NCBI GenBank assembly: GCA_015059045.1
Contig: SVBD01000001.1
Span: forward strand, 66,165 to 130,164
Direction of reading: 5' to 3'
DNA from: Erysipelotrichaceae bacterium
GTDB lineage: Bacteria > Bacillota_I > Bacilli_A > RFN20 > CAG-449
DNA: 64,000 nucleotides
The notes under the pieces were generated by a model. That model was not told where the DNA came from, made no database searches, and saw only the letters and a list, made by a program, of their open reading frames with translations. Positions 21,598 through 63,694 of the stretch are shown here, one piece after another. Made by a program: the position numbers and the translations under genes. The first letter of the stretch is position 1. Each line of letters begins with the position of its first letter.

Positions 21598-21602
21598 AAA
21601 AA

Positions 21603-33635: not shown

Positions 33636-33682
33636 CGTTTAAAAACATTGTTTTTAAATAAAAATGTTAATATAATTGAGTT

Positions 33683-33905
33683 AATTCTATGAAATAGAGG
33701 GTTTATATTGAAGTTTGTAGAGAGAGTTTGGTAGGTGAAAAAACTCAATAGAGATATAAACTTGACACTATGGAGAATGTGAAGTGAAATTAGTAGCGGA
33801 TCCGGTTGTTACGTTAAAACTATAAAGTGCATCAAGATTTTGATGAACTAAGGTGGTACCGTGCTTTATAGCACCCTTAGAGGTACTTTTTTTATTTCAA
33901 GGAGG
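33683..33905 (+). promoter_or_regulatory. T-box riboswitch leader of the hisS-aspS operon
   Basis: Extended -10 tgtTATAAT at 33668-33676. Stem I AGAGAG...GGTGA. T-box AACTAAGGTGGTACCGTG at 33846-33863. Terminator gcacccttagaggtac followed by tttttttat. RBS ggagga. Confidence 0.85.
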
Positions 33906-47857: not shown

Positions 47858-47892
47858 ACGGGCTTGAAAATAAATCAAACCCGTTTTATTTT
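47858..47892. terminator. Bidirectional terminator (yneF + / plsY -)
   Basis: acgggcttga-aaataaa-tcaaacccgt followed by tttatttt. A-run on the other side. Confidence 0.7.
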
Positions 47893-47903: not shown

Positions 47904-47956
47904 ACTAATATTCTACTAATTATCTACTAAAAGTAATAAATTAGTAGTTTTTTAGT
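47904..47956 (+). repeat. Phased pentamer array A: ACTAA x3 at 47904/47915/47926, then inverted TTAGT x2 at 47941/47952, all at exact 11-bp spacing, dyad centre 47935.5
   Basis: Seen directly. Ends 3 nt before the plsY stop codon (47959-47961). Confidence 0.8.
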
Positions 47957-47958
47957 TA

Positions 47959-48618
47959 TTACATCCATTTAATTTTTCTTTCTTCATGATTTATTAATCT
48001 TTTAATATTGCTTCTATGCATAATGATTAATAAGATACCTGATATAGCAATTGTTAATGTGTAGAAATAAGAATACGATGCATAATACATCCCAATTGGA
48101 AGATTTACTATTGTGAATACCAATGCAATAATAGGCAATATTAATGCACAAGAAATTGAAGATAGTGAAACGTATTTTTTAAGTTTCAATACTAAGAAGA
48201 AAATACATAATCCTATGATTGTTAATAACCAGTTTGTACAAAATATTATCGCGGCAAATGAACTAACTCCTTTTCCACCTTTAAATTGAGCAAAAATAGG
48301 AAAACAATGACCGATAACACAAAATATAGCAGAGAATTGGTAGGCATAATCTGTAACACCATAATTATTCAATGAGGTATATTTACAGATAAAATAAGCC
48401 GCTATAATTGGGATAATTGTTTTAATAATATCGATAATAATTACAATTAATCCTACTTTTTTTCCAAAAACTCTTCCGGCATTAGTACCTCCTGCATTTT
48501 TTGATCCGTACTCCCTTATGTCTTTTTTAAAAAATATTTTCCCTATAACAATAGATGTAGGAATTGAACCAAATAAGTATCCTATGAGTGAACATATTAA
48601 TAAAATAACAGCTTTCAT
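47959..48618 (-). CDS. plsY: Glycerol-3-phosphate acyltransferase PlsY
   Basis: YGSKNAGGTNAGRVFGKK motif. Multi-TM. 219 aa. Adjacent to parE-parC as in Bacillus. Confidence 0.92.
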   Translation of the reverse strand: MKAVILLICSLIGYLFGSIPTSIVIGKIFFKKDIREYGSKNAGGTNAGRVFGKKVGLIVIIIDIIKTIIPIIAAYFICKYTSLNNYGVTDYAYQFSAIFCVIGHCFPIFAQFKGGKGVSSFAAIIFCTNWLLTIIGLCIFFLVLKLKKYVSLSSISCALILPIIALVFTIVNLPIGMYYASYSYFYTLTIAISGILLIIMHRSNIKRLINHEERKIKWM

Positions 48619-48730
48619 TTCAAATAACTCCTATTCAATATCATATAGTATAAATTATCTTAATTTATATTTATAGATTTATTTTAATTTTTTTGATATA
48701 ATTTTATTTTGAGTGGATAGGAGTGTAATT

Positions 48731-50689
48731 ATGGCTGAAAAGAAGAATAATTATGGTGCTTCATCATTAAAAATCTTAAAAGGGTTGGAACCAGTAAAGA
48801 AAAGACCTGGTATGTATATCGGATCTACTGACTGGAGAGGAACTCACCATTTAGTATGGGAAATTGTTGATAACGCAATTGATGAAGCTATCGCAGGATA
48901 TGGTAAGAAAATTACGGTTACGATTCACAAAGATGGTTCTTTATCTGTTCAAGACGAAGGTAGAGGAATCCCTTGTGATTACAACGAAAAAGAAAAAATG
49001 GATGGTTTAGACATCGTTTTCTGCACTTTACATGGTGGAGGAAAATTTGATGGTGAAAACTATAAATCTGCAGCAGGTCTACATGGTGTAGGGTCTGCAT
49101 GTGCAAACGCATTATCTGAGTGGTTAAAAGTTACTGTTTATAAAGATGGTAAAGAATATTATGCATCTTATAAAGATGGTGGTAATAAAGATGTTTCAAC
49201 TAAATTAATTGGCGAAACAACTAAAAGAGGTAGTATTGTTACTTTTAAACCGGACAAGAAAATGCTTCCAGAGCCAGAATTTAAATTCGATCTAATTGCT
49301 GAAAGATTGAATAACTCCGCAAGCCAATGTAATGGTGTAAAATTTGTTTTAATTGATGAAAAACAAAATAAAAAACAAGAATTTTTATATACTGAAGGTA
49401 TTAAAGAATACTTAGAAAATAAAAATAAAAATCATTCAAGCGTAAATCCTATTGTTTATTTTAATGATGATAAGAATGAAATTAAAGCAGAATTTGCTTT
49501 CCAATTCCTTTCAGATGTTTACACAGAAGTAGTCTATTCGTTTGCTAATAGTATTTTTACAGTAGAGGAAGGTAGCCACGTTAGAGGTTATCGTTCTGGT
49601 TTTACTAAGGCATTTAATGAATTTGCTTCTAAAAATAATTTAATTAAAGGCAATCAAAAATTAGATGGTAGTGATATTCGTGAAGGTCTATCATGCGTAG
49701 TAAGCGTTAGAATCCCAGAAGAAAAAATTCAATTTGAAGGGCAAACTAAAGAAAAACTAGGAACTCCTGAAGCTGCAACTGTTGTAGAAACATTAGTCTA
49801 CGCTAATGTAACTCGTTATTTAATTGAAAATAAAGAATACGCAAATAAGATATTTACTAGAATTTTAGAAGCTCAGAAAGCTCGTTTGGCGGCTAGAAAC
49901 GCTAAAGAAGAAGTAAGAAATAAGATGCCAAAAGATGTTGAGAAATCAACTCTTATGCTTTCAGGTAAATTAGTTCCACCTCAATCAAAAGAATATAACA
50001 AATGTGAATTATTTATCGTAGAAGGTGATTCTGCTGGTGGAAGTGCTAAAAAATGTCGTGATAAGAAATATCAAGGACTATTACCACTTCGTGGTAAACC
50101 AAAAAATATTTCTAATGATGCTGAAGACGCATTCATGAAAAATGAAGAATTATCTACTCTTGCTTTTACAATTGGTACAGGTACAGGCAAAGAGTTCAAT
50201 ATCCGTAATCTACATTATGATAAAGTAATTATTATGACCGATGCTGATACCGATGGTGCGCATATTCAAAACTTATTAATCAATTTCTTCTATAAGAAGA
50301 TGAAACCATTAATTGAATTAGGACATGTTTATGTGGCTTGTCCACCTTTATATCGTGTATTTAAAATGGTTAAAAAGACTACTATTGAAGAATTTGCTTG
50401 GAACGAACAAGAATTAGAAATTGCTAAAAAGAAAATCGGAGCAGGTTATACTGTTTCTCGTTATAAAGGTCTTGGTGAAATGGATGCAGATCAACTTTGG
50501 AGAACAACTATGGATCCAAGAAATCGTAAATTAATTAAATTATCAATTCAAGATGATAAAGTTGCTGGAGATATGGTTGAATTATTTATGGGTAAAAATC
50601 CAGCTCCAAGAAATGCTTGGATTTCAGAAAATATCGATTTCTCAAATAAAGGTGATTTCTTTATCGAGGAGGTGAAGAATAATGGCTAA
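48731..50689 (+). CDS. parE: Topoisomerase IV subunit B (ParE)
   Basis: GHKL ATPase (EIVDNAIDE), TOPRIM (EGDSAGG), PLRGK. Followed by ParC. Start set at the ATG after RBS ggataggag. Confidence 0.9.
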   Translation: MAEKKNNYGASSLKILKGLEPVKKRPGMYIGSTDWRGTHHLVWEIVDNAIDEAIAGYGKKITVTIHKDGSLSVQDEGRGIPCDYNEKEKMDGLDIVFCTLHGGGKFDGENYKSAAGLHGVGSACANALSEWLKVTVYKDGKEYYASYKDGGNKDVSTKLIGETTKRGSIVTFKPDKKMLPEPEFKFDLIAERLNNSASQCNGVKFVLIDEKQNKKQEFLYTEGIKEYLENKNKNHSSVNPIVYFNDDKNEIKAEFAFQFLSDVYTEVVYSFANSIFTVEEGSHVRGYRSGFTKAFNEFASKNNLIKGNQKLDGSDIREGLSCVVSVRIPEEKIQFEGQTKEKLGTPEAATVVETLVYANVTRYLIENKEYANKIFTRILEAQKARLAARNAKEEVRNKMPKDVEKSTLMLSGKLVPPQSKEYNKCELFIVEGDSAGGSAKKCRDKKYQGLLPLRGKPKNISNDAEDAFMKNEELSTLAFTIGTGTGKEFNIRNLHYDKVIIMTDADTDGAHIQNLLINFFYKKMKPLIELGHVYVACPPLYRVFKMVKKTTIEEFAWNEQELEIAKKKIGAGYTVSRYKGLGEMDADQLWRTTMDPRNRKLIKLSIQDDKVAGDMVELFMGKNPAPRNAWISENIDFSNKGDFFIEEVKNNG

Positions 50690-53255
50690 GAAAAATGTCA
50701 ATATTGAAGAAGTATTTGAACAAACAATTATTGAATCTCCAATTGATGAAGTCATGAGTCAAGGATTTGGTCGTTATTCTAAGTATGTATTACAAGAAAG
50801 AGCCGTTCCTGATGTAAGAGATGGCTTAAAACCAGTTCAAAGAAGAATTGTATATACAATGACTTTAGAAGGTAATACTTCTAATAAACCAACTAGAAAG
50901 TGTGCTAGAACAGTTGGAGCCGTTATCGGTAGATTCCATCCACATGGTGATGCTTCTGTTTATGATGCAATGGTTAGACTATCTCAAGATTGGAAAATGA
51001 GATATCCTTTAGTCGACTTCCAAGGTAATAATGGTTCAATTGATGGCGATGGCGCAGCAGCATATCGTTATACTGAAGCGCGCTTATCTGAATTAAGTGA
51101 ATTATTAGTTCAAGATTTAAATAAAAATGTCGTAGATATGGAATTAAACTTCGACGATCAAGAACTCGAACCAACAGTTCTTCCATCTCGATATCCAAAT
51201 TTATTAGTAAATGGTTCTTCAGGTATTGCAGTAGGGGCTTCTACTGATATTCCACCTCATAATTTAGGTGAAGTAATTGATGCAATTTGTTATAGAATTT
51301 CTCATAAAAACGCTAAAATTGATGAATTATTTGAATTTGTTAAGGGTCCTGACTTCCCAACAGGAGGCATCATTAAAGAGGGAAATTCTTTAAAGGAAAT
51401 ATATTCTAAAGGTCAAGGATCATTTAAATTATATGCTAGAACTCATATTGAAGAGGGAAAAGCAGTCAATCAAATTATTATTGAGGAAATCCCTTACGGA
51501 AAAGATAAATCTGAATTTGTTAATAACATTGATAGAGTAAGATTTGCAAACAAGTTAGATGCAATTGTTGAAGTTAGAGACGAAACTGGCATGGAAGGTT
51601 TAAAAATCGCTATCGATGTTAAAAAAGATGCTGATATCAATAACTTATTAAACTTCTTATATTCAAAAGGATGTTTATCTACAACTATTAAGTTTAATAT
51701 GTTAGTTATTGATCACTTCAGACCTAGAGTATGTAATTTATTAGAGGTAATTGATTGCTATATTGAACATCAAGTTGATGTATTAACTAGACGTTCTCAA
51801 TATGATTTAAATAAGGCTAAAGCAAGATTACATATTGTTTCCGCATTAATTCGTGCTGTTTCAATCATGGACCAAGTTGTATCATTAATTAGAAGCAGTA
51901 AAGATAAGCAACACGCTAAACAACGTTTAATTACTGAATTAGATTTCACAGATATTCAAGCAGAAGCTATTTTAAATCTTCAATTATATAGATTGACTAA
52001 CTTAGATGTTACTACTCTAGTTAATGAGAAAGCTGATTTAGAATCTCAAATTGCATATCACGAAGCTTTACTTGGCTCATCTACTAAGATGAATAACTTA
52101 ATTAAGAGCGATTTAACTAAAATCAAAGAAAAATATGCTGATGAAAGAAGAACTTCAATTGAAGAAGAAGAGATTTCATTTAACGTTGATAAAAGAGCAT
52201 TAATTACAAAAGATGAAGTAATGGTTGCATTTACTCGCGATGGATATTTCAAACGTACGCAAATGAAATCGTATAATTCTTCTACAGTTGATTTACCTGG
52301 AATTAAACAAGGTGACGTATTTAAAGGTATAACAAAGGCATATACAACTGATTTCTTAGTTATTTTCACTAATTTTGGTAATTTCTTAAATATTCCAGTT
52401 TATATGTTAACTGATAATAAATGGAAAGATGAAGGCCAACACATTAATCAAATTGGTCAATTAAATCCAAACGAAAAAGTTGTTAATGGTATTTTAATAA
52501 GTGAATTTAGAGAAGATGTTAATCTTACATTTGTAACAAAATTAGGTCAAATTAAACGTTCACCAGTTAATGAGTTAAATGTTAGTAAGTTTGCTAAGCC
52601 AGTCAAATGCTTCAGATTATTAGATGGTGACGAGCTTGTAGATGTTAAAGTAGTGAATGGTGATACTAATTTATTAGTAGTTAACTCAAATGGTACATCT
52701 TCATTCTTTAATGAAAATGATGTTTCGTTAGTTGGTATAAAAGCTGGTGGCGTAAAAGCATTAAGTTCTACTAAAGAGAAGATTGATGTAGTTTCTTTAT
52801 TAACGTATAGAACAAATGAAAGATCTAAAATCATTATTTTGACAGATGAAAAAGGTGTAAGAATTGTTGATTCTTCACACTTAATTAAGACAAATAGATT
52901 AGGTGCAAAACAACAATTATTCAAATCATTTAAAGCTTACCCTCAAGAAGCAATTTATGTTGAAAAATCATCAAAAAATAATGAAATTTCAACAATTTAC
53001 GCAATTCTAGAGAATAATGCGTTGTCAAAAATTTCACTTGATGAAGTTAAATCTCAACCAATTGAAAGTTTCTTAAAAACTAACTTAGAAATCGATAGTC
53101 CTTTCAAATTTATTGACTCTTATACTTTTGATGTAGAAAGAGTAGATGAAACATTAGAAGTAGTCGAAATCAAAAAGACTATTGAAATAGTTAAAAAAGA
53201 CATTTTAGAAGATTATGAACAATTATCATTATTTGATTTTGTAGATGATGATTAA
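50682..53255 (+). CDS. parC: Topoisomerase IV subunit A (ParC)
   Basis: Active-site Tyr region (AAAYRYTEARL). GyrA/ParC N-terminal domain. C-terminal domain lacks a clear GyrA-box. 857 aa. Confidence 0.88.
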   Translation: MAKKNVNIEEVFEQTIIESPIDEVMSQGFGRYSKYVLQERAVPDVRDGLKPVQRRIVYTMTLEGNTSNKPTRKCARTVGAVIGRFHPHGDASVYDAMVRLSQDWKMRYPLVDFQGNNGSIDGDGAAAYRYTEARLSELSELLVQDLNKNVVDMELNFDDQELEPTVLPSRYPNLLVNGSSGIAVGASTDIPPHNLGEVIDAICYRISHKNAKIDELFEFVKGPDFPTGGIIKEGNSLKEIYSKGQGSFKLYARTHIEEGKAVNQIIIEEIPYGKDKSEFVNNIDRVRFANKLDAIVEVRDETGMEGLKIAIDVKKDADINNLLNFLYSKGCLSTTIKFNMLVIDHFRPRVCNLLEVIDCYIEHQVDVLTRRSQYDLNKAKARLHIVSALIRAVSIMDQVVSLIRSSKDKQHAKQRLITELDFTDIQAEAILNLQLYRLTNLDVTTLVNEKADLESQIAYHEALLGSSTKMNNLIKSDLTKIKEKYADERRTSIEEEEISFNVDKRALITKDEVMVAFTRDGYFKRTQMKSYNSSTVDLPGIKQGDVFKGITKAYTTDFLVIFTNFGNFLNIPVYMLTDNKWKDEGQHINQIGQLNPNEKVVNGILISEFREDVNLTFVTKLGQIKRSPVNELNVSKFAKPVKCFRLLDGDELVDVKVVNGDTNLLVVNSNGTSSFFNENDVSLVGIKAGGVKALSSTKEKIDVVSLLTYRTNERSKIIILTDEKGVRIVDSSHLIKTNRLGAKQQLFKSFKAYPQEAIYVEKSSKNNEISTIYAILENNALSKISLDEVKSQPIESFLKTNLEIDSPFKFIDSYTFDVERVDETLEVVEIKKTIEIVKKDILEDYEQLSLFDFVDDD

Positions 53256-53944
53256 TTATTTTTCTTAAATTCATTTAATAATTTAATTAAAGCTCGTTTC
53301 TCAATTCGAGAAACATAACTACGAGATATTTTATATTTTTTACTAATCTCCTTTTGTGTATGTTCGATTTCATTATTGAGTCCATACCTTAAGGAGATTA
53401 TTTTATATTCACGTTCATCTAATACATGAAGGTGTTTTCTAAGCGATTCAATTTGTTGCTTTTTTTCATATTGTTCTTCAATTGGTATTTCATCATTTGG
53501 CAATACATCTATTAAATTAATATCTGTACCATCTTTATCGACTGCAATACTTTCATTTATAGAGATATTTTTCGCTAGTTTTTTATTCGATCTAAAGACC
53601 ATTAATATTTCATTTTCAATACATTTAACGCTATAAGTTGCTAGTTTTACATTTTTATCTAAAGAGAAAGTATCAATTGCTTTAATTAATCCAATTGTTC
53701 CAATTGATATTAAGTCGTCAAAATTTTCATCTTTTGATTCATATTTTTTAGCGATATGTGCAACTAATCTTAAATTGTGTAAAATAAGTTTTTCTCTGGC
53801 ATTTTTATGGGTTTTTTCATCAAATAGTTCTTTGATGTATTTTTCTTCCTCCATATCGCTTAATTTTTCAGGATATACATTGTTATAAACAATTCCATGA
53901 AGAAAGGAACAATCAAAAATTGATAATAATAGTTCTAATAACAT
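53252..53944 (-). CDS. sigK: Sporulation sigma factor SigK, made as pro-sigma-K with an N-terminal pro-sequence
   Basis: KLILHNLRLVAHIAKKYE, DLISIGTIGLIKAIDTF, KLATYSVKCIENEILM and ISRSYVSRIEKRALIKL closely match B. subtilis SigK. N-terminal SFLHGIVYNNVYPEKLS parallels the pro-sigK pro-peptide. Uninterrupted, no skin-like element. Confidence 0.8.
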   Translation of the reverse strand: MLLELLLSIFDCSFLHGIVYNNVYPEKLSDMEEEKYIKELFDEKTHKNAREKLILHNLRLVAHIAKKYESKDENFDDLISIGTIGLIKAIDTFSLDKNVKLATYSVKCIENEILMVFRSNKKLAKNISINESIAVDKDGTDINLIDVLPNDEIPIEEQYEKKQQIESLRKHLHVLDEREYKIISLRYGLNNEIEHTQKEISKKYKISRSYVSRIEKRALIKLLNEFKKNN

Positions 53945-54061
53945 AAAATCACCTAGTTAAATGTATTTTTTCATTATATTTTTAATTCATATTTTAGAAA
54001 AATTATTTAATATATTTATTTTTTACAAATAAATAAGCTATAATAAAAATAAGGAGAATTT

Positions 54062-54583
54062 ATGGGATTATTTACACCGACTTATTACGCTAAAAGTTTA
54101 TATGAGATTCCAATTTCTTTTTATAAAGAAAACGGTATTAAAATTCTATTTTGTGATTTAGATAATACCTTAGATGCATTTTATGAACAAGACCCTACAG
54201 AAAAAGCTATTAAGCTTGTTAGGGAATTGGAAGAAAATGGTATTAAAGTTATTATTACTTCAAATAATCATGGAGATAGGGTAACTAATTACGCAAATAA
54301 ATTAAATGTAATTTGTCATTATTCTTCTAAAAAACCGTTGGGCTATAAATTACGTCGATTTATTAAAAGTAATAATTTTAATAAAGACGAAATTGTAATG
54401 GTTGGTGATCAACTCTTAACTGATGTAATTTGTAGTAAAAATACAAAAATAAGAGTGATATTAACAGAACCTTTAGTTAATAAGGATTTACCTGTAACTA
54501 AAGTGAATCGTTTCTTCGATAAAATTATTAGAAGAATGATGAAAAAGAAACTTACAAAATTGGAGGTAAAAAATCATGAGTAA
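54062..54583 (+). CDS. yqeG: HAD-IIIA phosphatase YqeG
   Basis: KILFCDLDNTL motif I. 173 aa. Precedes yqeH. Confidence 0.8.
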   Translation: MGLFTPTYYAKSLYEIPISFYKENGIKILFCDLDNTLDAFYEQDPTEKAIKLVRELEENGIKVIITSNNHGDRVTNYANKLNVICHYSSKKPLGYKLRRFIKSNNFNKDEIVMVGDQLLTDVICSKNTKIRVILTEPLVNKDLPVTKVNRFFDKIIRRMMKKKLTKLEVKNHE

Positions 54584-55682
54584 AATTAAATTTACATGTT
54601 TCGGATGTGGATGCGAATTACAAAATACAGATCCATATCAAAAAGGATATACTCCTAAAGTTCTAGAGCATGGAACAATTTTATGTCAACGTTGTTATCG
54701 TTTACAAAACTATGGTGATCATAAAGATGAAGAATTTGTAAAACCAGATTATAAGAGAGTATTTGAAAATGTAATCAATAAAAAATGCTTAATTTTATAT
54801 GTAATCGACTTGTTTTCAGTTGAAGCTAGTATGATTAGAGATTTATTTCCATTTATTCAAGATTGTCCAATTTTAGTAATTGCAAATAAGAGAGATATTT
54901 TGCCAAAGAGTATTAATGATGATAAATTAAAACAATTTATTTATAATAAATTCAAAATGGAAGGATTAAATATTAAAGGTATTATTTGTTCTTCTGCATT
55001 TAAAAATTATAATATTGACGAAATTATCGAAGCATGTAATGAATTAAGATACGGTAAAGATATTTATATTGTCGGAGCAAGTTCAGTAGGTAAATCTTCT
55101 TTAATTAATGTTTTATTGAAAAATATTAAAAATGAAACTAGAGATTTAATTTCTACTTCACCATATCCAGGTACTACAATTGCTACAATTACAATTCCTT
55201 TAGATAATAAATCAAAGATTTATGACACTCCTGGTATCGTATTGCCAAATTCAATGTATTATTGCATGGAGAAGAGTGTATTAAAATTAATTATCCCAAA
55301 AAGTGAAATTAAACCTATTACATATCAATTAAATCCAAAGCAAAGTGTGTTTATGGGTGGCATTTGCCGTTTTGATTTCGAAGAAGGTTCTAGATCAGGA
55401 TTTACTTTCTATATGTCAAATAATGTAGAATTACATCGTACAAAACTAGAAAAAGCATCAACTGTATTTGATAGTTTAGTAAGTCAAGGTAAAATTAAGC
55501 CAATTTCAGGAAAAATCACATCTTCTGCTTCGTTAGTAAAACATGACTTTATTTTACCAAATGATAGGGTTGATATCGCAATTCTTGGTTTAGGATGGAT
55601 TAGTGTTAAAGGTTGCGGTCAAAAAATTAGTGTTTGGGCACCTGAAGGCGTTTCAATTGTAATTAGACCTGCAGAAATTTAG
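54576..55682 (+). CDS. yqeH: Ribosome biogenesis GTPase YqeH (circularly permuted GTPase with N-terminal zinc finger)
   Basis: CFGCGCELQ...CQRC zinc finger. G4-G1-G3 order (ANKRDIL, GASSVGKSSLIN, DTPG). Confidence 0.85.
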   Translation: MSKIKFTCFGCGCELQNTDPYQKGYTPKVLEHGTILCQRCYRLQNYGDHKDEEFVKPDYKRVFENVINKKCLILYVIDLFSVEASMIRDLFPFIQDCPILVIANKRDILPKSINDDKLKQFIYNKFKMEGLNIKGIICSSAFKNYNIDEIIEACNELRYGKDIYIVGASSVGKSSLINVLLKNIKNETRDLISTSPYPGTTIATITIPLDNKSKIYDTPGIVLPNSMYYCMEKSVLKLIIPKSEIKPITYQLNPKQSVFMGGICRFDFEEGSRSGFTFYMSNNVELHRTKLEKASTVFDSLVSQGKIKPISGKITSSASLVKHDFILPNDRVDIAILGLGWISVKGCGQKISVWAPEGVSIVIRPAEI

Positions 55683-55690
55683 GAGTAAAT

Positions 55691-55984
55691 ATGTTAAGTA
55701 CAAAACAAATTAAATATTTAAAATCACTTGCTAATACATTAGAATCAAAATATAAGATTGGCAAAAATGAAATCAGTCATAATACTATAGTATTATTAGA
55801 TAATGCATTAAAGAAAAATGAACTAATCAAAGTTAGCTTAAATAATACAGTTTCAGAAGATAAAAACGAAATTGCTAGTTCTTTAAGCGAACAATTACAT
55901 TGCGAAGTAGTGCAAATCGTTGGTAATGTAATTACATTATTTAGAAAAAATTTAAAGGATGGTAAAATCCATTTACCGAATTAA
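55691..55984 (+). CDS. yhbY: YhbY/CRS1 family RNA-binding protein (YqeI)
   Basis: KQIKYLKSLANTLESKYKIGKNEIS...IKVSL pattern. 97 aa. Confidence 0.75.
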   Translation: MLSTKQIKYLKSLANTLESKYKIGKNEISHNTIVLLDNALKKNELIKVSLNNTVSEDKNEIASSLSEQLHCEVVQIVGNVITLFRKNLKDGKIHLPN

Positions 55985-55985
55985 T

Positions 55986-57074
55986 ATGAAGTATATTATT
56001 TATGGGGGATCTTTTGATCCAATACATAATGGTCATATTCAAATGGCTTTAAAGGCAAAAGAAGTAACTAACGCTGATAAAGTCATTTTCTTATTGTCTA
56101 AAAGACCACGTTGGAAAAATCCTTTAGAAGATGAAAATCATCGCTTAAATATGCTTAAATTAGCTTTATATAACATATCTTGGGCGGAAATTGATTTAAC
56201 AGAGTATAATTCCTTAGAAGATGTTAATTACACTTACAGAACTATTTTGAAAATAAAAAATAAATATCCAGGTGATTTATATTTCTTAATTGGAGGAGAC
56301 AATGTCAACCAATTAAATGATTGGTATGAAATTGATAAGTTATCAAAGATTGTTAAATTAATTGCAATCGCAAGACCTGGAATCGAACTAAATTATAACA
56401 ATATTTCCAAATATAATGTTGAAGTAATTAATTCTTATATTAGTAATATGAGTTCTACTTCTTTAAGAAATATGAGTAATTTAGATTGTCCAATTGAAGT
56501 TTTACAATATATTATTGAAAATAATTTATATTTTGTACCAAGATTAAAAGAGTATATTTCTGAAAAAAGATTTAATCATTCATATGAAGTTGCCAAATTA
56601 GCGTATCGTATCGCTAAAAGTAATAATTTAAATGAAATTAAGGCTTTTACAGGAGGATTACTTCATGATATAGGAAAAGGTATGGATAAAGATAAACAAA
56701 GGGCTTATATGGCTTTAAATTATCCAGAATTCTTAAATGAGTTGCCACCACCTCTATATCATCAATTTATATCTAGAGATATATGTATAAATGATTTTAA
56801 TATTTCTGATCAAGAAATACTAAATTCAATTGTATATCACGCAACAGGGAATAGCGAAATGACATCATTAGGAAAAGTTATATATAGTTCCGATAAGATT
56901 GAACCTACTAGAGGTTATGATTCTTCAGATATGATAAATGCGTGCTTAGAAGACTATCAAAAAGGTTTTGAATACGTTTTAAAAGAGAATATAAAGTTTT
57001 TAAAGGAAGCAAATAAAAGTTATGACAATGTTTTAACTAGAAAATGTATCAATTATTATTTAAAGGAGAGATAA
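55986..57074 (+). CDS. nadD: Fusion of nicotinate-nucleotide adenylyltransferase NadD with HD-domain hydrolase YqeK
   Basis: N-terminal half GGSFDPIHNGH (HxGH) = NadD. C-terminal half RFNHSYEVAKLA...GLLHDIGKG = HD motif of YqeK. Single uninterrupted ORF. Confidence 0.85.
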   Translation: MKYIIYGGSFDPIHNGHIQMALKAKEVTNADKVIFLLSKRPRWKNPLEDENHRLNMLKLALYNISWAEIDLTEYNSLEDVNYTYRTILKIKNKYPGDLYFLIGGDNVNQLNDWYEIDKLSKIVKLIAIARPGIELNYNNISKYNVEVINSYISNMSSTSLRNMSNLDCPIEVLQYIIENNLYFVPRLKEYISEKRFNHSYEVAKLAYRIAKSNNLNEIKAFTGGLLHDIGKGMDKDKQRAYMALNYPEFLNELPPPLYHQFISRDICINDFNISDQEILNSIVYHATGNSEMTSLGKVIYSSDKIEPTRGYDSSDMINACLEDYQKGFEYVLKENIKFLKEANKSYDNVLTRKCINYYLKER

Positions 57075-57076
57075 AT

Positions 57077-57406
57077 ATGAATCAAGTAAAATTAAGTTTA
57101 ATTCAAAAAGCAATTGATGAAAAAAAAGGAGAAAATATTTCTATTTATGATGTTGATTCTTCTTCACCATTTTTCTCACATATTATTGTTGTAACATCAA
57201 TGAATAAAAAACATTCCGAAGCTATCGCTGATGAAGTGGATAGAGTATGCGCTAGTTTAGATGAACCAATAAAAAATATCGAAGGTAAGAATGGTTCAGA
57301 TTGGGTCTTAGTTGATGCTGGAGATATTCTTGTTCACATCTTTACAGAGAGTGAAAGAATTAGAGTTAACATTGAACAATTAATTAAAAAAAGTATTCAA
57401 GGGTAG
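57077..57406 (+). CDS. rsfS: Ribosomal silencing factor RsfS (iojap)
   Basis: GENISIYDV...SHIIVVTSMNKKHSEAIADEV...GKNGSDWVLVDAGDILVHIF. Start at the ATG after RBS aaaggagag. Confidence 0.85.
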   Translation: MNQVKLSLIQKAIDEKKGENISIYDVDSSSPFFSHIIVVTSMNKKHSEAIADEVDRVCASLDEPIKNIEGKNGSDWVLVDAGDILVHIFTESERIRVNIEQLIKKSIQG

Positions 57407-57412
57407 GGCATT

Positions 57413-58093
57413 ATGAAAGAAGTAAATTTAATAATTGCTGCCATGGATGAAGAGGTTCAAGCGCTACTTGATAATCTTCCAAATTATGAAGTAAAAACTA
57501 TCGATGATAACACTGCCTATGAATTCAAAATTAGAGATGAAAATTTCATCTTAGTTAAAGGAAAAATTGGGAAAGTTTATACATCAATATTCTTGTCTAG
57601 ATTAGCTCTAATTTTAAAGATAAAAAGAGTATTTAATATTGGTACTTCCGGTGGGGTAAACAAAGGTCTAAAAATTAATGACGTGATAGTTGCAACTAAG
57701 GTTGGATATCATGATGTAGATGTCACATTCTTCAATTATGAAATTGGTCAAATTCCAGGTGATCCAAGATACTATGAATGTGATAATGAATTTGTAGAAT
57801 CTAGAATAATTGATCCGAAATATTCTATTAAAAGAGGAATCATTTTATCAGGTGATTCATTCGTTACTAGAGAAAATATTAATTCGAAAAATATTAATGT
57901 AGAAGAATGTCTTGCTTGTGAAATGGAATCTGCTTCGGTAGGGCAAACATGTTCTCAACTTAAAATCCCATTTGTCATAATTAGATCTATTTCAGATTTA
58001 ACATTTGAACAAATAGACGTAGATAGGCACAATAATGATGTAGTATCTTCTTCTACTAACTCAGCTTTAGTTCTTCTAGAATTAATTAAATAA
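57413..58093 (+). CDS. mtnN: 5-methylthioadenosine/S-adenosylhomocysteine nucleosidase
   Basis: MKEVNLIIAAMDEEV, TSGGV, SGDSFV motifs. 226 aa. Confidence 0.88.
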   Translation: MKEVNLIIAAMDEEVQALLDNLPNYEVKTIDDNTAYEFKIRDENFILVKGKIGKVYTSIFLSRLALILKIKRVFNIGTSGGVNKGLKINDVIVATKVGYHDVDVTFFNYEIGQIPGDPRYYECDNEFVESRIIDPKYSIKRGIILSGDSFVTRENINSKNINVEECLACEMESASVGQTCSQLKIPFVIIRSISDLTFEQIDVDRHNNDVVSSSTNSALVLLELIK

Positions 58094-58099
58094 GTAATC

Positions 58100-58130
58100 A
58101 AACAATGTCTTAATTCGACATTGTTTTTTT
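58100..58130 (+). terminator. mtnN terminator
   Basis: aaacaatgtc-ttaattc-gacattgttt followed by ttttttt. Confidence 0.8.
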
Positions 58131-58203
58131 ATTACTTACAATAAAGTAGTGAATTCATACACATAATTTTTAATAATTCGAACATATTTCTAAATATATA
58201 CTT

Positions 58204-58231
58204 ACTTCGCATAATGTTTATTATGTAAACT
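58204..58231 (+). other. dif: dif-like chromosome dimer resolution site (XerC arm - 6-bp core - XerD arm)
   Basis: ACTTCGCATAA-TGTTTA-TTATGTAAACT. 23/28 identical to B. subtilis dif (ACTTCCTAGAATATATATTATGTAAACT), with the XerD arm 11/11. Left arm CGCATAA as in E. coli dif. Lies in a convergent intergenic gap at the + to - gene-orientation switch, 2.5 kb from xerD. Confidence 0.8.
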
Positions 58232-58315
58232 AAATAAGTATTTAATATGGATTTTTCCATATAATTTTAATATACATATTAGTTATCAACATTATAAATA
58301 CTTGAGTTTTCCACA

Positions 58316-58346
58316 ATAAAAAAGGCGGTATTTTCAACCACCTTTA
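58316..58346 (-). terminator. Terminator of the minus-strand lipoprotein gene
   Basis: aaaaaggcgg-loop-ccaccttt with one mismatch, plus A/T runs. Confidence 0.5.
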
Positions 58347-58347
58347 T

Positions 58348-58374
58348 ACTAAATATATACTAATTATCTACTAA
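58348..58374 (+). repeat. Phased pentamer array B: ACTAA at 58348/58359/58370, spacers ATATAT and TTATCT
   Basis: Seen directly. The last pentamer overlaps the stop codon of the minus-strand gene 58371-59516. 117 bp from dif. Confidence 0.8.
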
Positions 58375-59516
58375 CTAAGCAATTTTATATAATATTGTTC
58401 AGGAAATTCTTCATTAATAAATTGAGAGTATCCTTTTAAATAGTTTTCATCATAGTAAGTAAATATATTCTTTACATATTCTAATCTATTAATGAATTTT
58501 TCATAAGGCGCATCTTCACCAAGCCACAAATGCCATGCTTGTAATCTACTTGTTTCATTCCACGATATTCCAACAGTATCGAATTGATATTTATAAGCTA
58601 AATATGTTTGCTCTGAATTAGGATCTTCGTTTGGATCATTATATTCTTCTGACATTTCTCTAAAATGAATTCTATTGTTCGCGGCTTTTCTAACATTGAT
58701 TAAATCTATTGTTGAATTTAAATAATCAAACACTTCATACATTGCGTCTTGATTATTATTGTAGTAATCAAGATTAACAAATAAACCACATTGAGGAATA
58801 CCTCTATCATTGAGATTTAAATCATCATTATATGATAAATAAGCATCTCTTAAAGTCTTACAATATTGTTCTTTAGTATGATCATCTCCTCGATCATCAT
58901 TAAGGGTAAAATTAGCATATTTTTCATTATATAATTTTGATTCTTTTAAGGTCATTAATCTAGTCGCATAAGGCTCATTAATTAAGACATAATCATAATC
59001 ATTTTCTAAGCCTTCTTGAGAGAATAAATAATTATAAAATTCAAGGTCATTATATGATAAATAATCTACGTCAAATTTATCAATTTTATTTAATGTTTTT
59101 CCTGCACTACCAAACTCATTATTTGTTAAAACTTTATATGATTTAGATGTTGGATCTAAATTTTTTAAAGGAATAAATTGTTGGTTCCCCATTGCAATAG
59201 TACCTACATAAGCATAGTTACCATATTCCTTACATAAATCTAATCCCCTAACTGAATCGTAAACAATCATTTGATAATTGCTATTATCTTTAAATGCATT
59301 TTCAATAGATTCTAAACTATCAGTAAATGTAAATTTTTCATCTTCGTAATATGTTAAAAACGCTAAAGAAGCAACACCTTTTTGACATATTAAATTAAAT
59401 TTTAATGGCTTATAAATAATTAACCAATTTTCAAGATTACAAGAACAACTACTAGTAGTTAATAAGGTCAATGATAATAATGATATAGATAGTAATTTAC
59501 AAAATCTATTCATCAT
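58371..59516 (-). CDS. Lipoprotein of unknown function (signal peptide, lipobox LLTTSSC)
   Basis: N-terminal [26 protein letters not shown]. 381 aa. Rich in N/Y/D/E. No family recognised. Overlaps the deoB start by 11 nt. Confidence 0.6.
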
Positions 59517-60705
59517 TTAATACCTCGTTGATTAATTCACCTATTTGAGTAGATTCCTTCTCTAAATTAAAGTTTTTAGCGATAGTTCTACCAATACATG
59601 CAAAAGATTTCATATTTTTTAATTCTCTACCTTTATTTATAGAAGGTGAATAAATTAATAAAGGAACCATTTCTCTAGTATGATCACTTCCGCGATGAAT
59701 AGGATCGTTACCATGATCCGCTGTAATCATTAATAAATCATCTTCTCTCATTTTAGAAATAAATTCACCTAATTGAACATCAAATTCTTCTAAACATTTT
59801 GCATAACCTTTAGGATTTCTTCTATGACCGAATTCTGAATCAAATTCAACTAAGTTTACAAAACATAAACCTGTGAAATCTTTCTTTAATAAAGCAATAG
59901 TTTTATTCATTCCATCTTCATTTGATACAGTCTTATAAGTTTCTGTTACACCAACCCCATTGAAAATATCATTAATTTTACCTACACAGATAGTATCAAA
60001 GTGGTTATCTTTTAAGATATCCATATAAGTTCTTCCTGAAGGAGATAAAGCATAATCATGACGATTACTTGTACGTTTAAAGTTATCTTTATTTGTGCCA
60101 ACATATGGTCTAGCGATAATTCTACCTAGTAAATACTCTGGTTTTAAACAAATTTCTCTAGCAATTTCACAATATCTATACAATTCTTTTAAAGGAATAA
60201 TCTCTTCGTGACCGCAAATTTGTAATACTGAATCACTTGAAGTATAGACAATTAGATCACCAGTTTTCATTTGGTGCTCACCATATTGTTTAATTATTTC
60301 TGTCCCAGATGCCGCAATATTACCGACGATATTTCTTCCAGTTCTACTTGATAATTCATCTAATAGTTCTTGTGGAAAGCCAGTATCAGTAAAAGTTTGG
60401 AAAGCTTCAGAAGTTAAAATCCCCATCATCTCCCAGTGTCCAGTCATTGTATCTTTACCATTACTTGCTTCTTCAAGTTTTAAACAATATGAATGTGGGT
60501 GATTGACTTTTGATGTGCCTAAAATATTAGAATCTAAGTCATTTAAACCAAGTTTATTTAAATTAGGTATATTTAGTCCATTATTAGCTTCACTAATGTG
60601 TACGAGCGTATTTGCCCCTAAATCACCAAATTTTTCCGCATCATTCATTGCTCCGATTCCTACTGAATCCATTACTATTAAGAATACTCTATTAAATTTT
60701 TTCAT
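59506..60705 (-). CDS. deoB: Phosphopentomutase
   Basis: [18 protein letters not shown] start and alkaline-phosphatase-superfamily metal ligands. 399 aa. Confidence 0.92.
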
Positions 60706-60733
60706 AAAATCATCTCCAACTTATAATTATATA

Positions 60734-61612
60734 CTATTTTTTGTTCATAAACAAATCATATGCAGATATTATTCTTTTACTTGAAACATGAGTGTAAATT
60801 TGTGTAGTAGTAATATTGCTATGACCTAACATTTCTTGCACCATTCTTAAATCTAATCCATTTTCTAATAAATGTGTAGCAAAGCTATGTCGTAATGTAT
60901 GAGGTGTTACATTTATTGTTATACCCGCATCTGAAGTATATTTTTTGATAATTTTCCAAAAATATTGTCGAGAAAGAGGTTTTCCAAAGTGATTTAGAAA
61001 AACATAATTACTACGGTAAATATCATACTTTCCTCTAACTTCAAATAAATATTTTAATAAGTACTCTTTTGCAAAATCACCTATTGGTACATGTCTTTCT
61101 TTATTCCCCTTACCAATTATCTTTAAAATTCCTAAATCAATATTAACTTGTTTTAATTTCAAATTTAATAATTCACTTACTCTCATTCCTGAAGAATACA
61201 TTACTTCAAGCATTGCTCTGTCTCTAATTCCTTCTTTTTTCTTCATATCAGGTTGTTCAAATAATGCTTCGATTTCATCTGTAGATAAAACGTCAGGTAA
61301 ATGATCATTCTTCTTTGGCATTGCAATATCATTTGAATTATTAGTTAAAATATTTTCTTTTTGAAGAAAATTATAAAATTGTCTTACAGTTCCTGCTCTT
61401 CTAATAATTGTTGTAGCCGCTTTTCCTTGACTTGATAATTTCATAATATAATCTTCAATATCATAAATCGTTAATTCCTCAGAATTTTCTTTTTTTGTGC
61501 ACTCGAAAAATGACAATAGATCTTCTTTATAACAATCTAAAGTTAAAATAGAAACATTTCTTTCATAGAACATCATTTCGATAAAACGTTCATATGCATC
61601 TTTAATCTTCAT
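60734..61612 (-). CDS. xerD: Tyrosine recombinase XerD
   Basis: HTLRHSFATHLLENGLDLRMVQEMLGHSNITTTQIYTHV with R..HxxR..Y catalytic residues. N-terminal core-binding domain. 292 aa. dif site 2.5 kb away. Confidence 0.88.
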   Translation of the reverse strand: MKIKDAYERFIEMMFYERNVSILTLDCYKEDLLSFFECTKKENSEELTIYDIEDYIMKLSSQGKAATTIIRRAGTVRQFYNFLQKENILTNNSNDIAMPKKNDHLPDVLSTDEIEALFEQPDMKKKEGIRDRAMLEVMYSSGMRVSELLNLKLKQVNIDLGILKIIGKGNKERHVPIGDFAKEYLLKYLFEVRGKYDIYRSNYVFLNHFGKPLSRQYFWKIIKKYTSDAGITINVTPHTLRHSFATHLLENGLDLRMVQEMLGHSNITTTQIYTHVSSKRIISAYDLFMNKK

Positions 61613-62783
61613 CTTTATTTCCTTCTAATTCGCTTGCTTTTATAAAAACATTTTTCTTATATTTATTATTTAATTCATTAATTAGCAATTTTGTTGCACA
61701 CTTTTCACGATGTTGTTTAATATCAAAAAAAGACATTTGAACATAAAAATCTTTTATATTTGATAAATTTGATAGAGTTACACCAACTAATCTAATAACT
61801 TTACCATTAAAATTATCATCGTATAATTTAATTGCTACATTATATATATCTTCGATATTATTTGTTGGCATTTTAATAGTTTCTGATCTTGAAAATGTTC
61901 TAAATTCACTATCTTTTATCATCAAAGAAATAGTTGAACCAATTTTCTTTTCTTTTTGAGCTCTTTTACTAACATCAACAGCTTTCTCATATATCATATT
62001 ACGAATTTCTTCATAATCATCTGTATCAAATAAAAATGTAGTTGAATTTCCAATAGACTTAGGGTCTTGATATTCAGTAATAACTTCGTCACTACCCTTT
62101 CCTTCAAGCCATTCTTTTAGAACATAATACGATTTACCTAATGTTTTTTTTACCTCAATTGTGTCATTTTTTGCTAAATCACCTATAGTTTTAACACCTA
62201 ACTTTTCTAATCTAGGATAAGTTTTTTTACCTATTCCAAACATATCTTTTATTGGGAGAGGCCAAATAATATTTTTTATGTCTTTTTTCCTTATAATAGT
62301 AATGCCCATAGGTTTTTTAATATCTGATGCCATTTTTGCTAAAAATTTTGTTGGCGCTAAACCAATTGAACACATTAATTTAGTTTCATCAAATAAATGT
62401 TTTTGTAATTCTTTTAAAAATAATTCTGGATCCTTGCAATTTTTCATACATTCAGTCATATCAGCATAACATTCATCAATAGAAGCTATTTCTATAATAT
62501 CAGTATATTTTCTTACGTAATTGAAAAATTTAGTGCTTAAATCATGATATAGATTGAAATCACAATCCCTAACTATGACATTTGGACATAACTTTAATGC
62601 CATATATGTTGGCATAGCAGAATTGATTCCAAATTTCCTAGCTTCATATGAAGCGGTAGAAACAATCCCTCTCCTAGTAGATCCAGCAATAATTAGTGGC
62701 TTACCTTCTAACTCAGGTTCCTTTATTACTTGAGCACGAGCGTAAAAACAGTTTAAATCGATATGCATAATGATTCTACTCAT
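61602..62783 (-). CDS. dinB: DNA polymerase IV (Y-family, DinB)
   Basis: MSRIIMHIDLNCFYA, SIDECYAD catalytic motifs, little-finger domain. 393 aa. Confidence 0.9.
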   Translation of the reverse strand: MSRIIMHIDLNCFYARAQVIKEPELEGKPLIIAGSTRRGIVSTASYEARKFGINSAMPTYMALKLCPNVIVRDCDFNLYHDLSTKFFNYVRKYTDIIEIASIDECYADMTECMKNCKDPELFLKELQKHLFDETKLMCSIGLAPTKFLAKMASDIKKPMGITIIRKKDIKNIIWPLPIKDMFGIGKKTYPRLEKLGVKTIGDLAKNDTIEVKKTLGKSYYVLKEWLEGKGSDEVITEYQDPKSIGNSTTFLFDTDDYEEIRNMIYEKAVDVSKRAQKEKKIGSTISLMIKDSEFRTFSRSETIKMPTNNIEDIYNVAIKLYDDNFNGKVIRLVGVTLSNLSNIKDFYVQMSFFDIKQHREKCATKLLINELNNKYKKNVFIKASELEGNKDED

Positions 62784-62828
62784 ACACTCATCCTCCTAAT
62801 ACAATTATATAATTTTAGTTCATATATG

Positions 62829-62859
62829 AAAATAAAAGAATAATAAAATTATTATTCTT
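62829..62859 (-). terminator. spo0A terminator (minus strand)
   Basis: aagaataata-aaat-tattattctt 10-bp stem followed on the minus strand by ttatttt. Confidence 0.6.
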
Positions 62860-62870
62860 CTATTAAATTA

Positions 62871-62897
62871 ACTAATTATCTACTAAATATATACTAA
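62871..62897 (+). repeat. Phased pentamer array C: ACTAA at 62871/62882/62893, spacers TTATCT and ATATAT
   Basis: Seen directly. Ends 2 nt before the spo0A stop codon (62900-62902). Shares the 16-mer ACTAATTATCTACTAA with arrays A and B. Confidence 0.8.
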
Positions 62898-62899
62898 AA

Positions 62900-63694
62900 T
62901 TATGAGAAAATTACTTTTGAATTAACTTCTTTATTTTTAATTTTAATATGATCACTAATCATGGCGATAAATTCACTATTTGTAGGCTTGCACTTATATG
63001 ATGAAATTGTATATCCAAATATCTCATTAATCTTTGTGATATTTCCTCTAACCCATGCCAATTCAATCGCGTGTCTGATAGCTCTTTCAACTCTAATTGA
63101 ACTAGTATTATATTTTTTAGCAATTTCAGGATATAAGACCTTAGTAATACTTCCTAAAAAATTTTCATCCTCATAAGTAGATATAATTGCACTTCTTAGA
63201 TACGTATACCCCTTAATATGAGCAGGAATTCCTAATTCATGCATCAATTTTGTTACTTGTTCTTCTAAATGATATTTAATATTTTTATTTAAATTTGTAT
63301 CCAGTTCTTTTTTAAATGGTTGAAATTTAATACTTGAAATTAATGAATCTATTGAATATGGTTTTAAAAGAATATTAGATACATTATATTTACTTAATCT
63401 TGATATTGTTACTTCATTTGCAAATGAAGTTGTTACTATAATATCCCCGATTCTTGGATAATTATTTGGATTATTAAATATCTCTTCCAAAACTCCTAAC
63501 CCATCAACTTCTGGTAATAGCAAATCTAAGATTAACACATCTATATTTCTAAAATTATGCATTTTTCCTAATGCCTCTCTGCCACTACTGGCAAAATCAA
63601 TTATATATAATGATTCCTCCTTTGCTATTCTTGCGATGTTTTGATTTAATACATCTTTAATTGATTCGATAATAAATACTGACTTTTTATTCAT
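62900..63694 (-). CDS. spo0A: Sporulation master regulator Spo0A (receiver domain plus Spo0A-specific DNA-binding domain)
   Basis: C-terminus [20 protein letters not shown]...[65 protein letters not shown] is near-identical in pattern to B. subtilis Spo0A. Receiver Asp (ILDLLLP), Thr and Lys are present. The usual DD pair is replaced by E-S. Confidence 0.9.

Follow-up and report, generated by a model that had tools for sequence, protein, structure and literature searches.

Helically phased repeat arrays beside dif and at other terminus-proximal sites in a mostly uncultured branch of the Bacilli

The stretch of DNA considered here, a 64,000-nt window of contig SVBD01000001.1 (positions 66,165 to 130,164 of the forward strand) from the Erysipelotrichaceae bacterium assembly GCA_015059045.1, carries a family of short direct-repeat arrays whose unit, read in the sense of the adjacent gene, is an 11-bp site, TTAGTAGWTAW. 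These arrays are conserved, helically phased sites at the level of DNA, and they are tied to dif, the chromosomal recombination site that serves to unlink sister chromosomes, and to the replication terminus. The array nearest dif is one part of a tripartite module, in which the array is followed after 10, 21 or 32 bp by a DnaA-box-like 9-mer, TGTGGAWAA, and after a further 85, 95 or 105 bp or so by the XerD arm of dif; of 17 genome loci that contain dif, 16 have the module, and metagenomes supply 80 distinct sequences of it. The arrays probably dock a protein, and we put at about even the chances that the module forms an accessory nucleoprotein arm on the chromosomal dif, with the remaining arrays serving as satellite sites for the same factor.

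Results

The arrays and their repeat unit

An earlier note on this DNA had described three co-oriented arrays of the pentamer ACTAA, which is the reverse complement of part of the unit, repeated at exactly 11 bp. An exact search of the whole window (27.8% GC) for ACTAA-N6-ACTAA-N6-ACTAA returned just these three, at 47904-47930 (array A), 58348-58374 (array B) and 62871-62897 (array C), all on the + strand, and none of 100 dinucleotide-preserving shuffles of the window yielded a single match, which places the arrays beyond chance. The 16-mer ACTAATTATCTACTAA is indeed common to all three. The 11-bp distance accounts for 6 of the 16 ACTAA pairs in the window that lie within 40 bp of one another, and when up to three mismatches were allowed two further arrays appeared, the seven matches standing against an expectation of 0.13. 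A fourth array, referred to here as S1, lies on the opposite strand at 724-750 with one mismatch, and a fifth sits just outside the window, where it overlaps the stop codon of xseB (L001, 7105-7131).

Related arrays were sought in a scan of one genome per species with a tightened pattern, and all counts given below for genome loci are among the matches listed. The scan produced at least 107 heterogeneous arrays and at least 26 tandems of identical units, the array loci belonging mostly to metagenome-assembled genomes (MAGs) of uncultured 'Bacilli', 'Mollicutes', Erysipelotrichaceae, CAG:288 and Onthovivens, often several to a genome; perfect tandem repeats from unrelated phyla made up the noise. 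Arrays hold three to five units and span 27-49 bp, about 30% of them with a weaker, in-phase fourth unit on either side, and their spacers are heterogeneous between units, unlike those of simple tandem repeats. With the spacer left unconstrained, 154 units gave the consensus T-T-A-G-T-A-G(61%)-W-T(72%)-A(71%)-W, and the commonest spacer, GATAA, occurs in 13% of units where about 0.3% would be expected. Because the so-called spacers are biased at positions 7, 9 and 10, the element is a recognition site of about 10 bp repeated every 11 bp, rather than a pentamer with a neutral spacer.

The period itself is specific. In 482 kb of dif-centred metagenome DNA, a set selected solely for presence of the dif module and independent of the genome loci, pairs of TTAGTA outside the module numbered 18 at 11 bp and none or one at each other spacing from 7 to 17 bp, while three-unit arrays numbered seven at 11 bp and none at 9, 10, 12 or 13 bp. 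None of the 107 genome arrays lies within an open reading frame (ORF), since the motif carries stops in all six frames. Among the 96 arrays with two called neighbours, both genes run in the sense of the array in 40 cases, the genes converge in 26, diverge in 4, and both are antisense to the array in 26; the arrays avoid divergent promoter regions and show no tie to the transcribed strand. The restriction to 11 bp removes composition as an explanation, and with it the earlier note's proposal that the period serves to place a UAG in each of the three reading frames in turn: spacings of 7, 8, 10, 13 and 14 bp cover the frames equally well, yet only 11 bp occurs, and an array antisense to both of its genes, as 26 of the 96 are, also speaks against such a purpose.

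The module at dif

A canonical dif, ACTTCGCATAA-TGTTTA-TTATGTAAACT, lies at 58204-58231 on the + strand, coinciding with the change of sign of the GC skew at about 58 kb, and xerD (60734-61612) is 2.5 kb from it. The arm that faces array B (58221-58231) is of the TTATGTAAACT type, which we take to be the XerD arm by homology with the dif sites of E. coli and B. subtilis. Array B (TTAGTAGATAATTAGTATATATTTAGT, 58348-58374, its units on the minus strand) points toward dif and starts 117 bp from it, in agreement with the distance first reported. The TAG stop (58371-58373) of the adjacent minus-strand gene, which encodes a 381-aa lipoprotein (58371-59516), is inside the array, and the intrinsic terminator of this gene (58321-58345, minus) falls between the array and the DnaA-box-like 9-mer, TGTGGAAAA on the minus strand (TTTTCCACA on the + strand) at 58307-58315, which follows the array after 32 nt and is separated from the dif arm by 85 nt. 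The AT-rich interval between box and dif (58232-58306, minus) is poorly conserved, apart from two phased tracts, of A near -37 and of T near -15 relative to dif, and between genomes its length varies by whole helical turns; the two tracts suggest intrinsic bending or the site of an architectural protein.

This arrangement recurs with little freedom of geometry. At 16 of the 17 dif loci from the genome scan an array flanks the TTATGTAAACT arm, with its centre 129-159 bp from that of dif, and points to dif. Thirteen of the 107 arrays, array B included, are followed at 8-32 nt by TGTGGAWAA, always in the same orientation and in no case upstream, and nearly all of these 13 have dif some 90-120 nt further on. 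The distances at the 17 genome loci fall into discrete clusters, at 83-86, 94-97 and 104-106 bp from box to dif arm (Rayleigh R 0.82 at a period of 10.1 bp, p<0.0002), at 8-11, 21-22, 31-32 and 42 bp from array end to box (R 0.84, 11.1 bp, p<0.0002), and at 133-135, 140-144, 154 and 164 bp from array start to dif (R 0.71, 10.3 bp, p 0.0016).

Metagenome contigs were then searched with a pattern for the whole tripartite module, comprising 31 specified bases and two variable gaps, which gave 106 exact matches, 80 of them distinct, at loci of 25-51% GC. In these 80 modules the array end is 10-11, 20-22 or 31-32 bp from the box (R 0.88, period 10.7 bp) and the array start about 126, 136, 147 or 156 bp from dif (R 0.73, 10.5 bp). 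The box-to-dif distance, measured here to the WAYATAA motif and so 3 nt further in than in the genome set, is 97-102 bp in 74 of the 80, with a few at 88-89, 92 and 109 bp (R 0.81 at a period of 12.0 bp, and 0.80 at 10.5 bp). For each interval of the metagenome set, not one of 2,000 random distance sets was as periodic as that observed. Three elements that keep to one face of the helix while the number of whole turns between them varies argue for a nucleoprotein complex formed on the DNA itself, and the whole-turn steps point to one in which the DNA would be bent or wrapped.

The phasing also bears on whether the arrays might instead function in RNA. In the window, arrays A, B and C are each flanked by a stop codon and a terminator and are expected to be transcribed, and 38 of the 97 dif loci have a gene for a PemK/MazF-like protein directly beside the array; one can therefore envisage a 3' untranslated element in which UUAGUA supplies stops in three frames, or is the target of an RNA-binding protein or RNase such as the MazF-like neighbour. 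Such an element is difficult to reconcile with the use of 11 bp alone when other spacings cover three frames, with distances phased to a DNA site at the DNA helical repeat, or with the 26 arrays that are antisense to both neighbours. A covariance-model search of Rfam matched no family at any array, RNA folding (a check that the earlier note had advised) gave a minimum free energy of 0 for arrays B and C, which are thus unstructured, and a tblastn search of the window, L001 and L242 was negative for a MazF-like gene. Depending on the genome, furthermore, the terminator that belongs to the upstream gene may precede, surround or follow the box. It is from the want of an Rfam family, the unstructured B and C, the variable terminator and the antisense arrays that we read the arrays as DNA-level sites, and a function in RNA appears to us very improbable.

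The 9-mer reads TGTGGATAA in about one third of the tabulated boxes and TGTGGAAAA in about two-thirds, the DnaA-box consensus being TTATCCACA; such 9-mers number 35 in 1.01 Mb, where they are single and never clustered. Its form raises the question of a DnaA-based element, in which DnaA at the 9-mer would nucleate cooperative binding along an array of degenerate boxes 2 bp apart, and would thereby be titrated or coupled to the terminus and dif. Several features recall the elements of oriC. The 9-mer equals the DnaA box or departs from it by one mismatch, the units have an 11-bp period and on the box strand read WTAWCTACTAA, TTATCTACT, which makes up 13% of units where about 0.3% would be expected, agrees with TTATCCACA in 7 of 9 positions, and the TAG-rich array and reverse-complement box stand in the same order as the DnaA-trios and boxes in Thermotoga oriC oligonucleotides. 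The units, however, differ invariantly from the box at its positions 6 and 9 (TACT, never CACA) and agree with it in 7 of 9 positions at best, the register from box to unit is 11k+2-3 bp rather than 11k, arrays away from dif lack a strong box nearby, and an origin-like cluster of boxes was present at no array locus. Unlike the DnaA arrays of oriC, moreover, these lie at the terminus and their trios are not contiguous. We think it quite unlikely that DnaA itself occupies the arrays in this manner.

Viral contigs contained no match to the module pattern, and an origin of the module in a phage or integrative element was rejected for this reason. A separate observation comes from a 20.7-kb contig of 48% GC (L356, from Logan ERR13998840), which keeps the AT-rich array, box and dif module as well as the dyad array downstream of plsY; judged by sequence, the retention of an AT-rich module in such a background is a sign of strong constraint. 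In the same locus an inverted TTATCCACA stands 4 nt past the box.

Arrays at other sites

Arrays recur at the same intergenic places in different genomes, namely S1, after plsY, after xseB, in the deoB-xerD-dinB stretch, after spo0A and at dif. Array A adjoins plsY (47959-48618, minus) and is double. Its distal half (TTAGTAGATAATTAGTAGAATATTAGT, 47904-47930, minus) consists of three units in the sense of plsY and points away from dif, and its stop-proximal half (TTAGTAGTTTTTTAGT, 47941-47956, +) consists of two units in the opposite orientation, with TTAGT at 47941 and 47952, and lies 2 nt from the plsY stop; a bidirectional terminator hairpin common to the convergent yneF and plsY is found at 47858-47884. 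The perfect dyad symmetry that had been ascribed to this site is borne out in part, for the inverted TTAGT pair is there, symmetry extends over the pentamers but is imperfect in the spacers, and folding of the region is possible. The back-to-back layout recurs in L355 and L356. Array C (TTAGTATATATTTAGTAGATAATTAGT, 62871-62897, minus) is 2 nt past the stop of spo0A (62900-63694, minus) and 4.7 kb from dif, with the spo0A terminator hairpin at 62831-62864 (minus). Each of arrays A, B and C has the stop of a minus-strand gene to one side and a terminator hairpin to the other, as the earlier note had observed; this holds here and at the plsY site of relatives, but it is no general rule.

S1 (TTAGTAGTTTTTTAGTAAATATTTAGC, 724-750, +, three units with one mismatch) is 57.5 kb from dif, past the terminator of an upstream + strand gene and before the gene that starts at 813, and arrays occupy the orthologous site in L127, L146, L153, L193 and L209. 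Beside it, a Spo0A-box-like TGTCGAA (712-724) precedes the first unit by one 11-bp repeat length, in phase, and is kept as TGTCGAA or TGTCAAA in L146, L152 and L153.

The form of the unit and the setting of S1 are what would be expected of operators for a response regulator or other transcription factor in the style of OmpR, PhoB or ArcA, whose regulon happens to lie near the terminus. Sites of the OmpR family are built of head-to-tail 11-bp units in which 5-7 bases are specific and the rest are AT-rich, as in C. difficile RR_1586, where DRTTAAGNWWW occurs twice in head-to-tail 11-bp units; among known systems these operators, with a head-to-tail period of 10-11 bp that the arrays share, are the closest in unit architecture, and on this and the association with terminus and dif the earlier note's view of the arrays as helically phased repeats built like protein-binding sites has held up. 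Many arrays, too, lie 20-40 nt upstream of a start codon, and S1 is just upstream of a plausible promoter, beside the Spo0A-box-like element. What an operator would not explain is the depletion of divergent promoter regions (4 arrays versus 26 at convergent genes), the location of the best-conserved sites in promoter-less convergent regions (after plsY, and at dif whatever gene lies upstream), flanking genes that form no coherent regulon, the phasing with dif, or the loss of the plsY array where plsY is not near dif. Unlike OmpR/PhoB operators, the arrays are mostly off promoters, have three to five units rather than two, and are clustered at the terminus and linked to dif. We consider a regulatory role of this kind unlikely.

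Synteny and contigs with several matches both point to a strong enrichment of the arrays near dif. Of the 120 array loci, 61 have genes in common with the 74-kb dif region of the source, about 51 of them at least three, where random placement is estimated to give 5-8%; on an 879-kb contig three matched blocks fall inside 48 kb, and in the source itself four sites lie within about 10 kb of dif versus one in the remaining ~55 kb read. The arrays keep their intergenic places although coding DNA in even the best array loci has just 66-72% nucleotide identity with the window, over the aligning stretches only. As loci selected by a pattern are biased, the test was repeated with loci fetched by protein homology alone. 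Two relatives of Spo0A at about 50% identity (L352 and L353) both have the array downstream of spo0A and the dif module, and one of the two has the xseB array; the array after spo0A is also in L154 and is absent in L124. Four relatives of PlsY, at 66, 58, 52 and 45% identity, gave an array directly after the plsY stop in three (66, 58 and 45%), two with the back-to-back layout of array A and one at 48% GC; in the fourth (L357) plsY is not near dif and has no array. A plsY-downstream array is found in seven pattern-retrieved loci as well. The spo0A locus of a cultured Amedibacillus has no array, and dif is also absent there. The earlier note had allowed that the motif might turn out to be abundant in random orientation, or missing from orthologous positions; neither proved to be the case, and the arrays are conserved at such positions. 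In the unbiased 482-kb metagenome set extra arrays are sparse, with about one two-unit array per 27 kb, and as such the module is the widely conserved core.

With this conservation in hand, the simplest alternative, an artefact of composition or simple tandem repetition in AT-rich intergenic DNA, can be regarded as refuted. The low GC content of the window invites it, and looser patterns do match many unrelated AT-rich or tandem-repeat sequences. Such an origin would not, however, account for the empty shuffles, the unique spacing with heterogeneous spacers, orthologous arrays kept between loci whose proteins are about 50% identical and in a locus of 48% GC, or 106 exact matches to a pattern of 31 specified bases.

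A further observation concerns one orthologous site in the dinB/recN neighbourhood (L133 at ~3660, L151 at ~2525, L202 at ~1473), where the array, pointing away from dif, is followed immediately by TGTTTCAC, a half-parS of the Spo0J type. No whole parS was found near the arrays, the half-parS at this site being the only one.

Orientation relative to dif

The common orientation of arrays A, B and C, remarked on in the earlier note, is not informative by itself. Arrays outside the module do point toward dif in 12 cases to 3 at the genome loci and 13 to 5 at the metagenome loci (25 of 33 combined, 72-76%), but in these loci ORFs of 100 aa or more run toward dif by 449 to 23 (95%). Since the bias of the genes exceeds that of the arrays, polarity adds nothing beyond gene co-orientation, and replication-directed polarity was dropped as independent evidence, the 12:3 and 6:1 biases being lost against this gene control. 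Arrays on the XerC side are divided 6 to 5 in the unbiased metagenome set, and three groups of orthologous sites are consistently directed away from dif. A Ter-like or KOPS-like polarity has no support independent of gene orientation. Two loci have arrays on both sides of dif and converging on it (L145, 1602-2143; L222, 501-874), at about 150 bp on the XerD side and about 190-220 bp on the XerC side, and in L145 a third array points away.

These figures bear on the possibility of polar replication-fork barriers, in which a terminator protein bound at the arrays would admit forks to the terminus and block their exit. Fork traps are known only for Tus and RTP, the latter restricted to a few Bacillus species, and have evolved at least twice. 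RTP binds its Ter sites as multiple protein units on half-sites A and B. A Bacillus Ter site spans about 30 bp with two overlapping half-sites for RTP dimers, and the ACTAA core recalls the Ter consensus. Like Ter sites, the arrays gather around the terminus and are asymmetric with multiple units; about 76% of them (25/33) face dif, those of L145 and L222 close on it from both sides, and the back-to-back pair of array A loosely resembles opposed Ter sites. Yet the bias toward dif is below the 95% of neighbouring genes and amounts to 6:5 on the XerC side, three orthologous groups point away from dif, and the helical phasing with dif and box, which Ter sites are not known to have, would be without a role. 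The architecture of three to five direct 11-bp repeats also departs from that of RTP sites. No RTP is listed in Pfam annotations of the ~84 kb read and of the surroundings of 97 dif loci, and no RTP-like gene is present in the sequence scanned. The kinship with Ter at which the earlier note had hinted gains no support from site architecture, from the genes of the sequence available or from polarity, and we judge a fork trap improbable.

Sites that load, orient or stop a DNA motor are the remaining possibility of this sort, whether for FtsK/SpoIIIE (as KOPS or SRS) or for the unloading of SMC (as matS or XDS). The location near the terminus agrees with it, as does an array on the XerD side that points to dif, given that FtsK acts through XerD; SMC traffic is moreover kept off dif in several systems, and MatP-matS and XerD-XDS are likewise sets of specific sites at the terminus that organise it or keep SMC off dif. 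In B. subtilis the XDS at which XerD unloads SMC are described as dif-like. The matS site is a 13-bp palindrome bound by a MatP dimer. Unlike either, the arrays are phased direct repeats at a fixed position beside dif, and unlike KOPS and SRS, single motifs of about 8 nt that are skewed genome-wide, genes included, with a switch at dif, they are 27-49 bp long, outside ORFs and locally clustered, with a skew no greater than that of genes. A direct tie of the arrays to FtsK/SpoIIIE or SMC was not found. This too seems improbable to us.

Neighbouring genes and candidate binders

The genes of the window are of housekeeping and sporulation type (thrS, pyk, pfk, dnaB, a dnaI-like gene, era, recO, glyS, dnaG, sigA, relA, hisS, aspS, ispG, efp, yneF, plsY, parE, parC, sigK, the yqeG-rsfS operon, mtnN, deoB, xerD, dinB and spo0A). 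Several were weighed as encoding the binder and set aside, the 381-aa neighbour of array B because it is a lipoprotein, a 162-aa protein because it is SpoIIIAH-like, and other small proteins of no known family because they have no DNA-binding signature. An orphan ORF upstream of ybeY (window 21300-21600; L242 9538-9843) encodes 101 aa and is very basic, with 28 K/R against 5 D/E; it has no homologue in Pfam, PHROGs, the PDB or related loci, may be lineage-specific or not a real gene, and was rejected as a binder because it is not conserved.

The PemK/MazF-like gene that adjoins the array on the XerD side in 38 of 97 dif loci (L244 and 37 others, e.g. L216, L199, L161, L217, L238, L233, L125, L162 and L239) encodes about 185 aa, with PF02452 at residues 52-142, an N-terminal extension of about 50 aa and a PHROG match annotated 'mazE-like'; its stop abuts or overlaps the TTAGTA array, and no obvious antitoxin gene lies upstream. 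As tblastn detected no copy in the window or in the flanking loci L001 and L242, this gene does not explain the arrays.

Gene order near dif is strikingly conserved between the window (53252-61612) and about 97 related loci. On the XerC side, sizes and positions match the yqeG-yqeH-yhbY-nadD/yqeK-rsfS(-mtnN) series of the window, all running into dif; the XerD side carries deoB and xerD, and parE/parC, sigK and plsY are found no more than about 10 kb away. Elsewhere the window has ordinary features, namely three clustered tRNA genes at 10316-10582 (+) and two T-box leaders, at 13104-13303 (-) and 33680-33881 (+), which by position precede thrS and hisS-aspS.

In a collection of 5.8 billion proteins the source Spo0A has one relative at 98% identity and one at 83%, after which identities fall to about 55% or less, and its named relatives, at 44-48%, are Erysipelotrichaceae. 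This near-absence of close relatives indicates that the source belongs to a deep, poorly sampled spore-forming lineage near the Erysipelotrichales.

Discussion

Reviews of Xer recombination and of termination describe the chromosomal dif as a bare 28-bp site activated by FtsK, accessory DNA being a property of plasmid sites. In the literature searched we found no description of phased arrays or of a DnaA box beside a chromosomal dif. Given the geometry reported here, it is reasonable to postulate that each 11-bp TTAGTAGWTAW unit would hold one subunit of a putative sequence-specific protein, so that three to five subunits would be aligned along one face of the helix. At dif, the array, the DnaA-box-like 9-mer and the XerD half of the site would be brought into a bent or wrapped nucleoprotein complex, and this complex would constitute an accessory arm of about 135-165 bp on the site of chromosome dimer resolution, where it might control or assist XerCD or position other machinery. 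The arrays after plsY, spo0A and xseB and at S1 would in turn be terminus-proximal satellite sites for the same protein, and may raise its local concentration or pair sister termini. In its most explicit form, which we advance only tentatively, a dedicated protein and a factor bound at the DnaA box (possibly DnaA) would build the wrapped arm on the XerD side and gate dimer resolution or terminus segregation, while the satellite arrays mark out a terminus domain.

The closest parallels in geometry come from plasmid Xer sites and their accessory sequences, namely ColE1 cer, which works with ArgR and PepA, and pSC101 psi, which has ArcA in place of ArgR, also with PepA. At cer, about 180 bp of accessory DNA lies by the core; it is intrinsically bent and contains one Arg-box, 98 bp from the XerC site. 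ArcA, the factor of psi, binds pentamer repeats at 11-bp spacing. As in these sites, some 150-180 bp beside a XerC/XerD core appear to be involved, with a factor site about 95-100 bp away (the Arg-box at 98 bp; here the 9-mer at about 85, 95 or 105 bp), DNA that is probably bent, and a fixed geometry. Accessory DNA lies within about 200 bp of its core, and among the arrays of the window this proximity is confined to array B, the corresponding values in 16 of 17 loci being 133-164 bp from array start to dif arm and 83-106 bp from box to dif arm; the helical phase of factor site to core is likewise fixed, with distances quantised at about 10.5-11 bp (R 0.70-0.88). Unlike cer and psi, the module is chromosomal, stands on the XerD-arm side, is built of TTAGTAGWTAW and TGTGGAWAA rather than an 18-bp Arg-box, and shares its array motif with other terminus-proximal sites.

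A number of points weigh against an accessory arm with satellite sites. It is difficult to see how a cer-type topological filter would work across an entire chromosome, and the accessory DNA of cer and psi adjoins the XerC site whereas the module is on the XerD side. The identity of the boxes as DnaA sites is presumptive, about two-thirds of those tabulated being TGTGGAAAA and not the perfect consensus, and a Pfam scan of the unannotated window proteins gave no RTP-like or other DNA-binding match. The metagenome pattern itself fixed the orientation and the distance ranges of the module, and the side specificity consequently rests on the 17 genome loci; some modules, moreover, come from related genomes and are not independent. 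The satellite arrays are tied to dif solely by their common motif and their nearness, their enrichment at the terminus was estimated from synteny, from the matches listed in the genome scan and from small counts, and satellites as dense as these may be a peculiarity of the lineage of the source.

Systems specific to the terminus, such as fork traps, MatP and XDS, have been described for only a few model lineages. The present work adds a large and mostly uncultured branch of the Bacilli with a conserved, helically phased accessory module on dif and the same repeat at terminus-proximal sites, and the module provides a sharp marker for dif and the terminus in fragmented MAGs. Array, box and spacing rules together define a precise cis-element that is open to direct test. 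Should it prove functional, it would imply a new DNA-binding factor and a different control of dimer resolution or terminus organisation in these small, AT-rich Firmicutes of gut and rumen; if the proposed complex is real, it would represent a third kind of terminus-specific DNA-protein system beside the Tus/RTP traps and MatP/XDS, and the first chromosomal dif with obligatory accessory DNA.

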